From NCBI GenBank assembly GCA_005878515.1, contig VBLZ01000100.1, positions 1 through 34,537 on the forward strand: a stretch of 34,537 nt of DNA, in the 5' to 3' direction. The notes beneath the pieces are model-generated. The model was not told the DNA's origin. It saw only the letters and a program-made list of their open reading frames with translations, and made no database searches. Numbering within the stretch: the first letter of the stretch is position 1; every line of letters starts with the position of its first letter. Both the position numbers and the translations under genes were made by a program. The stretch is from Methanobacteriota archaeon. GTDB taxonomy: Archaea > Thermoplasmatota > Thermoplasmata > RBG-16-68-12. Below, piece by piece: positions 11,350 to 12,188 of the stretch.

Positions 11350-12078
11350 ATGGAAGCAACCGCGGAGGAAGTCCGTGCGAAAGTGCGGGAACGGTATTCG
11401 ATCGCAGCGAGCAGGCGGGGTGGTTGCGAGGACGACGGCTGTTGCGCGATCGGCTATTCGCCGGTGGAGCTCGAAGGGATTCCTGCCGAATCCGTCCTCG
11501 GATTGGGCAGTGGAAATCCGGTCCGGCATGCGGAGCTGCGCCCCGGCGAGACCGTCGTCGACCTCGGGAGCGGCGCCGGAATCGACGTGTTCCTCGCGAG
11601 CCGCCTCGTCGGCCCGGCGGGGCACGCGACCGGGATCGACATGACGCCAACCATGGTCACACGCGCCACGACCGCATCGGTGGCTCACGATATCCGGAAC
11701 GCATCGTTTGTCCTCGCGCCGATCGAGAAACTGCCGCTTCCGGATGGGCATGCGGACGTGGTCCTGAGCAATTGCGTCATCAACCTGAGCCCCGACAAAC
11801 CGGCCGTGTTCGCCGAGGCCTTCCGAATCCTGAAGCCGGGCGGACGACTCGTGATCTCGGACGTGGTCCAAGAACGGGACCTGGGCCGGATCGAAGACGA
11901 CTGCGGCTGTGTCGGAAACGCGATGGTCCGTGGCGAGTATTTGGAGACGATCCGGCGTGCTGGATTTGCGGAACTCCGAATTGTGGAAGACCGGCCCTGG
12001 CGGACGGGCCCGAGCGGAATCGAGGCGTCCGCCGTCACCCTCATCGCGCGAAAGCCGGGACGGGAGGTGAAGATGTGA
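11350..12078 (+). CDS. arsM: Arsenite S-adenosylmethionine methyltransferase
   Basis: VRERYS...[70 protein letters not shown]. Confidence 0.88.
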
Positions 12079-12188
12079 TACCCATCGAGATCATGCTGGC
12101 GAAGGCGCTCGCGGAGGAACTCCGCGCAGAAGGCTGCTGCGGGAGCGGGCCGTGTTGCGCGGACTCCCGTTGTGGCTGCTGCGCCTGA
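12075..12188 (+). CDS. Cys-rich micropeptide (37 aa), metallothionein-like
   Basis: [40 protein letters not shown] start overlaps the arsM stop (GTGA); strong SD GGAGGTGA at 12063-12070. Confidence 0.72.

Follow-up and report, generated by a model that had tools for sequence, protein, structure and literature searches.

The locus under study lies in a window of 34,537 nucleotides (contig VBLZ01000100.1 of a Methanobacteriota archaeon) and contains an arsM-like gene on the forward strand (11350..12078) that encodes a SAM methyltransferase of 242 amino acids, recognized by its matches to NF008823, to Methyltransf_31 and to solved structures. A TrmB-family regulator is encoded divergently from arsM on the reverse strand at 10503..11300 (Pfam TrmB, 1.8e-13; Regulator_TrmB, 5.9e-13); the ORF listing begins this gene with a TTG at 11300, and an ATG at 11288 is the likely start. 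Embedded in the final codons of arsM is a Shine-Dalgarno (SD)-like sequence, GGAGGTGA (12063-12070, forward strand), and the GTG that follows it (12075-12077) overlaps the TGA of the arsM-like gene (12076-12078) in the arrangement GTGA. This GTG opens a small open reading frame (sORF) of 37 codons plus a stop (12075..12188, forward strand; stop TGA at 12186-12188). Its 37-residue product carries Cys at residues 21, 22, 27, 28, 33, 35 and 36, that is, seven Cys including three CC pairs within the last 17 residues, and its first half is free of Cys. An earlier note on this DNA had reported the SD, the overlapping GTG, the length of the product and its Cys content, and all of these are present in the sequence.

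The Cys cluster, read from the sequence, occupies residues 21-36 (12135..12182, forward strand) and is preceded by a predicted amphipathic helix over residues 4-18 (12084..12128, forward strand) with a LAKAL core, which is the better-conserved half of the peptide. AlphaFold2, given an alignment of 11 sequences, modelled this helix with a mean pLDDT of 69 for the whole peptide and of about 80 for its first ten residues, in agreement with the helical N-terminal half that had been proposed; confidence is low in the Cys-rich half. The peptide matched none of the Pfam or NCBIfam families, metallothionein and zinc-finger families included, and the earlier suggestion of a metallothionein or of an As(III) chaperone analogous to ArsD thus found no counterpart among the models of these two collections. 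The ESM Atlas likewise returned no usable neighbour. The Cys density is exceptional for this genome: when all stop-to-stop frames of at least 30 amino acids were scanned in six frames over the whole 1.84-Mb assembly (64% GC), seven Cys within a 17-residue window were found in 1 of 29,866 frames, and that frame is the sORF itself, while six Cys were reached by ten frames.

Past the sORF, a convergent ORF of 89 amino acids is encoded at 12268-12537 on the reverse strand; it has no family match and is found beside the sORF at 64-96% identity in L002-L006 and L008 of the loci described below. Further along, at 13204-15360 on the forward strand, lies a 718-amino-acid protein with a right-handed beta-helix region, two PKD domains with poly-Pro linkers and a C-terminal hydrophobic anchor, and this is probably a surface protein.

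The promoter region and the divergent regulator

A TATA-box-like element (tatttaat, 11312..11319, forward strand), read from the sequence and putatively part of the arsM promoter, is followed by a perfect 7-bp inverted repeat, CTACTAC-N6-GTAGTAG (11325..11344), which ends 5 nt before the arsM ATG and is a putative operator. A similar A/T-rich element stands at the corresponding position when the 20 orthologous intergenic regions are aligned; 15 of these 20 contain an exact CTACTAC-N(3-9)-GTAGTAG, and the remaining five a near-match to it. The palindrome is presumed to be a candidate operator of the TrmB-like regulator. Because it ends only 5 nt before the ATG, a leaderless or near-leaderless arsM mRNA is suggested, and this layout suggests a transcript that would be repressed at its start site by a thiol-sensing TrmB-family protein. 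A leaderless first cistron also fits a second cistron whose translation depends on an SD.

No ArsR-type regulator was found at the locus. A TrmB-type regulator adjoins arsM in L001-L016, L030, L125 and L126, and the one in the window ends in SPRCC and has a CxC motif at residues 216 and 218. Among its orthologues the terminal SPRCC is kept in 17/17 and a CxC-type pair near residue 216 in 16/17, which makes the protein a candidate thiol or arsenic sensor. A regulator/operator pair of this kind for arsenic genes in soil Thermoplasmata is apparently undescribed.

Conservation and coding character of the sORF

A search with the ArsM protein against 61 related genomes returned 16 loci (L001-L016), with ArsMs that are 53-100% identical; the same TrmB-family regulator lies divergent to arsM in every one of the 16. 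Searching the 79 genomes of the order by profile brought in two more loci in which arsM and TrmB adjoin (L125 and L126) as well as L039. The sORF lies behind 14 of the 18 evaluable orthologous TrmB-linked arsM genes (L001-L010, L015, L016, L125 and L126, with L007 counted though its contig ends after the first 14 codons of the sORF), and the homologue is weaker in L015 and L016 than in L001-L006 and L008-L010. At 13 of these 14 loci, the arsM stop and the start codon of the sORF (GTG, ATG or TTG) share bases as NTGA, and GGAGGTGA or a close variant (a GGAGG-type SD) precedes the orthologous starts by 4-8 nt. At L008, arsM ends within the SD, and the GTG comes 5 nt after the stop and in another frame relative to arsM, which shows independent initiation. 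No sORF was found 3' of arsM in L011-L014, and the sORF is therefore not essential to the enzyme. The earlier note had staked its proposal on conservation of the frame and the Cys pattern downstream of orthologous arsM genes; the frame and a Cys cluster are indeed conserved at the 14 of 18 loci, together with the SD and the overlap, and with the purifying selection described below. Synteny is conserved for TrmB, arsM, the sORF, the 89-amino-acid ORF and RNase HI only.

Within the genus, 8 of 38 genomes gave a match to the peptide profile (E<=3.2e-12), each with one copy and always at the 3' end of arsM. Across the order, matches at E<=0.01 were obtained in 14 of 79 genomes, 13 of them convincing; the match in G036 (E 0.09 and 0.0096), which has no Cys cluster, was set aside. 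The convincing matches, one per genome, all lie at arsM 3' ends except the copy in G004, which is directly behind an arsM-type promoter (L039, 1500-1680): there, the promoter and palindrome are followed by an SD, a GTG and an intact sORF of 38 amino acids with seven Cys, and arsM is missing from the locus, with no ArsM orthologue found in the 81%-complete assembly (best E 8.8e-10).

C27, C33 and C35 of the peptide are invariant in alignment A2, and L8, A11 and L12 of the helix are invariant or nearly so. Ten of the 14 complete family members, the G004 copy among them, have 6-8 Cys (9 of the 13 complete arsM-linked copies), and the other four (L009, L015, L016 and L126) have 2-4; in L126 the spacing is CxxCxxxCxxxC. 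When 1.84 billion representative proteins were searched exhaustively by HMM, four matches at E<=0.001 were obtained. Three of these (P0002-P0004, 37-41 amino acids) are true members, which the public protein library lists as called proteins, and one of them has the look of the L002 sORF with its TGA read through. P0001 (1038 amino acids, 16 matching stretches), the fourth match, is a repeat protein in which TTCC motifs recur and was rejected as spurious. The closest records that carry a name are soil MAGs with the label Thermoplasmata or Methanobacteriota archaeon, in keeping with the archaeal origin that had been assumed, and within these searches the peptide family appears confined to one order of soil Thermoplasmata.

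The pattern of substitution is that of a coding sequence in the peptide frame. Nei-Gojobori pN/pS, summed over six gapless orthologues whose kinship makes the figures descriptive and not a test, was 0.46 in the peptide frame versus 1.21 in the arsM read-through frame and 0.92 in the third frame. Differences by codon position in the sORF numbered 90, 89 and 173, and the LAKAL codons vary synonymously between genera. Constraint is stronger in the helix half (pN/pS 0.32) than in the Cys half (0.62). Furthermore, four independent sequencing runs contain no indel in 12040-12188, which excludes an assembly frameshift, and strain indels begin at 12195-12197, right after the sORF stop, as fits a coding constraint that ends there. 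Long open alternative frames are common at 64% GC, and the peptide frame is open from 11424, as would be expected of a non-functional frame, either an accident of high G+C content or a C-terminal part of ArsM displaced by frameshifting or sequencing error; however, the conservation, the selection, the SD, the run data and the altered relative frame at L008 leave this explanation with hardly any probability. In particular, programmed frameshifting into an ArsM-peptide fusion was rejected, because the relative frame differs at L008 and no fused protein occurs among the 1.84 billion representatives, and read-through of the TGA in the arsM frame was rejected on its pN/pS of 1.21. A Cys-sensing attenuator like the mycobacterial polycysteine sORFs was rejected as well, since no further cistron follows the sORF and the neighbouring gene beyond it is convergent.

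Two RNA-library runs bear on transcription of the locus. In run X20, a contig of 850 nt covers 11447-12296 with 0 differences and spans arsM and the sORF, and in run X19 a contig of 182 nt covers 11975-12156. These metatranscriptome contigs are a weak hint of arsM-sORF co-transcription, as they carry no strand, level or translation and RNA libraries can contain DNA. Taken together, these data demonstrate that the sORF is a real protein-coding gene and, after the arsM-like gene, the second cistron of a two-gene operon.

The ArsM-like enzyme and the Cys-rich ends of other ArsMs

The enzyme scores 238.1 bits against the NF008823 arsenite methyltransferase model, under the cut-off of 263, over profile positions 3-235 of 272, and its matches to Methyltransf_31 (1.1e-29) and related Pfam models show that a SAM-dependent class I methyltransferase domain is present. 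Its closest solved relatives are the arsenite methyltransferases 5evj (5.5e-27) and 4fr0 (6.4e-22). The equivalents of CmArsM Cys174 and Cys224 are retained: SNCVINLS aligns with the SNCV of 4kw7 and 5evj, a CGC aligns with the C-terminal Cys region, and SNCVIN was found in most homologues. The Cys72-equivalent is replaced by Ser (GSGNP versus GCGNP; ArsM residues 50-57, 11500-11520) in all 16 TrmB-linked enzymes of L001-L016, and it is Cys in every canonical homologue whose motif could be read by script. C26 and C31-C32 of the enzyme align with the part of 5evj that contains its N-terminal Cys and are candidates for the equivalent of CmArsM Cys44, and in the TrmB-linked ArsMs the N-terminal Cys region is shortened to C-x4-CC right before the GYS motif. 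In CmArsM, all four conserved Cys are required for the first methylation; Cys44 and Cys72 form the disulfide that reduces the As(V) intermediate, and thioredoxin then reduces this pair. Thiol-conjugated As(III), bound by thiol transfer, is the preferred substrate (PMC6138428). Given the score under the NF008823 cut-off and the loss of the Cys72-equivalent, we infer rather than observe that arsenite is the substrate of the enzyme in the window.

The 18 TrmB-linked ArsMs group together in a maximum-likelihood phylogeny as a single clade (support 100/99), set apart by a long branch from bacterial ArsMs and from the canonical ArsMs that occur within the same archaeal order. The sORF is found on all three deep branches of this clade, and it thus dates to the origin of the clade, alongside the changes in the enzyme. 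It was lost later in L011/L012 and L013/L014, and Cys were lost from the peptide in L009, L015, L016 and L126. ArsMs that have no peptide, or a 2-Cys peptide, carry only a minimal N-terminal CC, and those with a 6-8-Cys peptide carry 3-4 N-terminal Cys; the exception is L125 (G073), where an ArsM of 205 amino acids begins right after the palindrome and has no N-terminal Cys region, and the 7-Cys sORF is kept. It looks like the N-terminal Cys number and the peptide Cys number co-vary rather than simply compensate, across what are few independent events.

The earlier note had started from the premise that many ArsMs carry Cys-rich tails in cis, and such tails are indeed common. Among 76 complete ArsM homologue ORFs from the bacterial loci L044-L120, 37 have a CC within the last 50 residues, 14 have at least four Cys there and 13 have a CCx2-5CC. 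The order of motifs in the peptide, CCGVxACC and then CGC, recurs in eight bacterial ArsMs, all from Streptomyces. Canonical ArsM N-termini also carry CCGx4-5CC, and GCCGPSTGCCADP of L065, an incomplete ORF, resembles the cluster of the peptide. The peptide profile itself scored at best 10.0 bits against the cis tails and 11.1 bits against the best unrelated genome frame; scores of at least 7.5 bits were obtained by 4 of 90 ArsMs versus 11 of 29,866 background frames (with the peptide itself excluded), and the ArsM matches all align at profile positions 10-29. As the tail scores are not above background, the likeness is one of a short motif, an analogy, and a common origin is not demonstrable. 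Of the idea that the peptide is such a tail encoded in trans, the shared motif holds up, but similarity at the level of the profile does not. In the literature searched, mostly outside subscription papers, there was no description of the peptide nor of a function for the Cys tails of ArsM.

A different small protein was seen beside bacterial arsM genes of Mariprofundus and relatives (L067, L068, L070, L117 and L118). It has 80-90 amino acids, is encoded 90-140 nt 3' of arsM, and has a hydrophobic, signal-peptide-like N-terminus, MNPCNPC(A/S/G)MK repeats and 7-10 Cys; it possibly serves bacterial ars loci as an exported partner that binds metal(loid)s.

Possible roles of the peptide and comparison with known systems

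The reading we prefer is that the peptide would be a trans-encoded, As(III)-binding thiol cluster serving ArsM, as the clusters in cis presumably do, and we give it an even chance of being right. As proposed, the two-gene operon of arsM and the sORF would be transcribed from the TATA-plus-palindrome promoter and is probably controlled by the divergent, Cys-bearing TrmB-like regulator, presumably in response to arsenic. For the sORF, translation would use its own SD and proceed by termination-reinitiation at the GTGA overlap. The N-terminal amphipathic helix may serve as a docking element, to ArsM, or as an oligomerisation element, and the C-terminal vicinal Cys would hold trivalent arsenic by their thiolates, of which As(III) prefers three. 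The peptide would capture As(III) and present or buffer it for the methyltransferase, which would raise the local supply, and in that role its function may be ArsD-like. The peptide would thereby make contact with ArsM; complex prediction from the ArsM and peptide alignments gave a score of 0.02 against a mark of 0.32, with the partner's own fold uncertain, which weighs neither for nor against such a contact. Several observations speak against the proposal: the fall to 2-4 Cys in four members, the four ArsMs that lack a sORF, the G004 copy without arsM, the tail scores no better than background, and an enzyme that falls below the NF008823 cut-off and has lost the Cys72-equivalent.

A broader version of the thiol-cluster proposal, which we regard as rather improbable, sees in the clade an arsenic methyltransferase of two components. 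When the clade arose, the enzyme would have lost the Cys72-equivalent and most of the N-terminal Cys linker and gained a separately translated Cys cassette; the peptide would dock by its helix and give thiols in trans for As(III) capture and possibly for a disulfide cascade, and a new TrmB-family regulator with CxC and a terminal CC, sensitive to arsenic, would switch the whole unit through CTACTAC-N6-GTAGTAG.

The peptide could alternatively act as a redox relay, its dithiols re-reducing or replacing the catalytic disulfide pair of the methyltransferase now that the Cys72-equivalent is lost. The Ser at this position in all 16 enzymes and the 7-Cys peptide kept by L125 beside an enzyme with no N-terminal Cys region would both be explained, and two reports offer chemistry of this type, namely the thioredoxin-recycled Cys44/Cys72 disulfide of CmArsM that reduces the As(V) intermediate (PMC6138428) and the mobile C-terminal Cys pair of ribonucleotide reductases (PMC5704485). 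However, the enzymes of L011-L014 have also lost the Cys72-equivalent and yet have no peptide, and enzymes accompanied by a Cys-rich peptide tend to carry a larger number of N-terminal Cys themselves, L125 excepted, which is co-variation and not compensation; the relay is accordingly unlikely in our estimate.

With seven Cys in 37 residues, the product could also be a general metal-binding microprotein, metallothionein-like or zinc- or iron-sulfur-binding, that merely shares the arsM promoter. The spacing CxxCxxxCxxxC in L126 would suit such a protein, and so would the copy in G004, intact in its Cys, SD and GTG and placed behind the promoter where arsM is absent; this copy makes a function independent of ArsM possible and keeps a stand-alone sequestering role alive. 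Nevertheless, the peptide was never found away from this promoter or from the arsM context in the 79 genomes of the order, it has no metallothionein or zinc-finger match in Pfam or NCBIfam, and the start/stop overlap with arsM is kept at 13 of 14 loci. We consider a general metal binder of this type quite unlikely.

The earlier note had also raised the idea of a ribosomally synthesised and modified peptide, in which a conserved leader precedes a variable Cys core and the Cys are the substrate of the methyltransferase. The adjoining methyltransferase and the stronger constraint on the N-terminal half than on the core are what such a peptide would show, but the enzyme retains the arsenic-site Cys of ArsM, no maturase-like family (radical-SAM, YcaO or lanthipeptide-type), peptidase or transporter was found among the ORFs scanned (6.3-18.1 kb), the conserved synteny is limited to the five genes named above, and the peptide persists in G004 where the enzyme is missing, which together make this idea highly improbable.

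If the preferred reading, a thiol cluster serving ArsM in trans, is correct, the free 37-residue cluster would be a clean handle on the Cys-rich ends that are widespread on ArsM enzymes, as it can be added or omitted while arsenic binding, methylation kinetics and tolerance are measured. An archaeal micropeptide whose biochemical role can be tested would be gained as well. The peptide would escape gene callers and arsM marker surveys, and soil Thermoplasmata are counted in arsM surveys of soil; such surveys may furthermore misjudge the Ser-for-Cys clade by counting an enzyme with altered chemistry.

Among known systems, the Cys-rich extensions found in cis on other ArsMs are similar in their CCGx3-4CC, sometimes followed by CxC, beside the same enzyme, and they are presumed to supply thiolate ligands for As(III). 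In the peptide, by contrast, a gene apart from arsM encodes the cluster, with an SD and a start codon for itself, and a conserved helix is added. The concept of an arsenic-binding Cys cluster attached to ArsM exists in cis, and the free peptide is without a family model. Metallothioneins, bacterial and other, are likewise very small, very rich in Cys and likely disordered in the absence of metal; unlike these, the peptide has no family match, is tied strictly to one enzyme or promoter and consists for half its length of a Cys-free helix.

ArsD is a protein of about 120 amino acids with a thioredoxin-like fold that serves the ArsA ATPase. In the 75%-complete genome, PF06953 (ArsD) and TIGR00832 (Acr3) were not found, and genes for ArsA-like ATPases are present. 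The peptide differs from ArsD in its 37 residues and its lack of a PF06953 match. It resembles ArsD as a small protein of an ars operon with vicinal Cys pairs, three CC pairs that are putative As(III) ligands; in ArsD, the vicinal Cys pairs are the As(III) sites, from which the metalloid is handed over to a partner enzyme (PMC12607644). A further parallel comes from mercury methylation, in which HgcB, a ferredoxin-like protein that has no sequence relation to the peptide and works with a corrinoid protein as the methyl donor, carries a C-terminal tail of vicinal Cys as the partner of a metal-methylating enzyme and is thought to deliver the metal to it.
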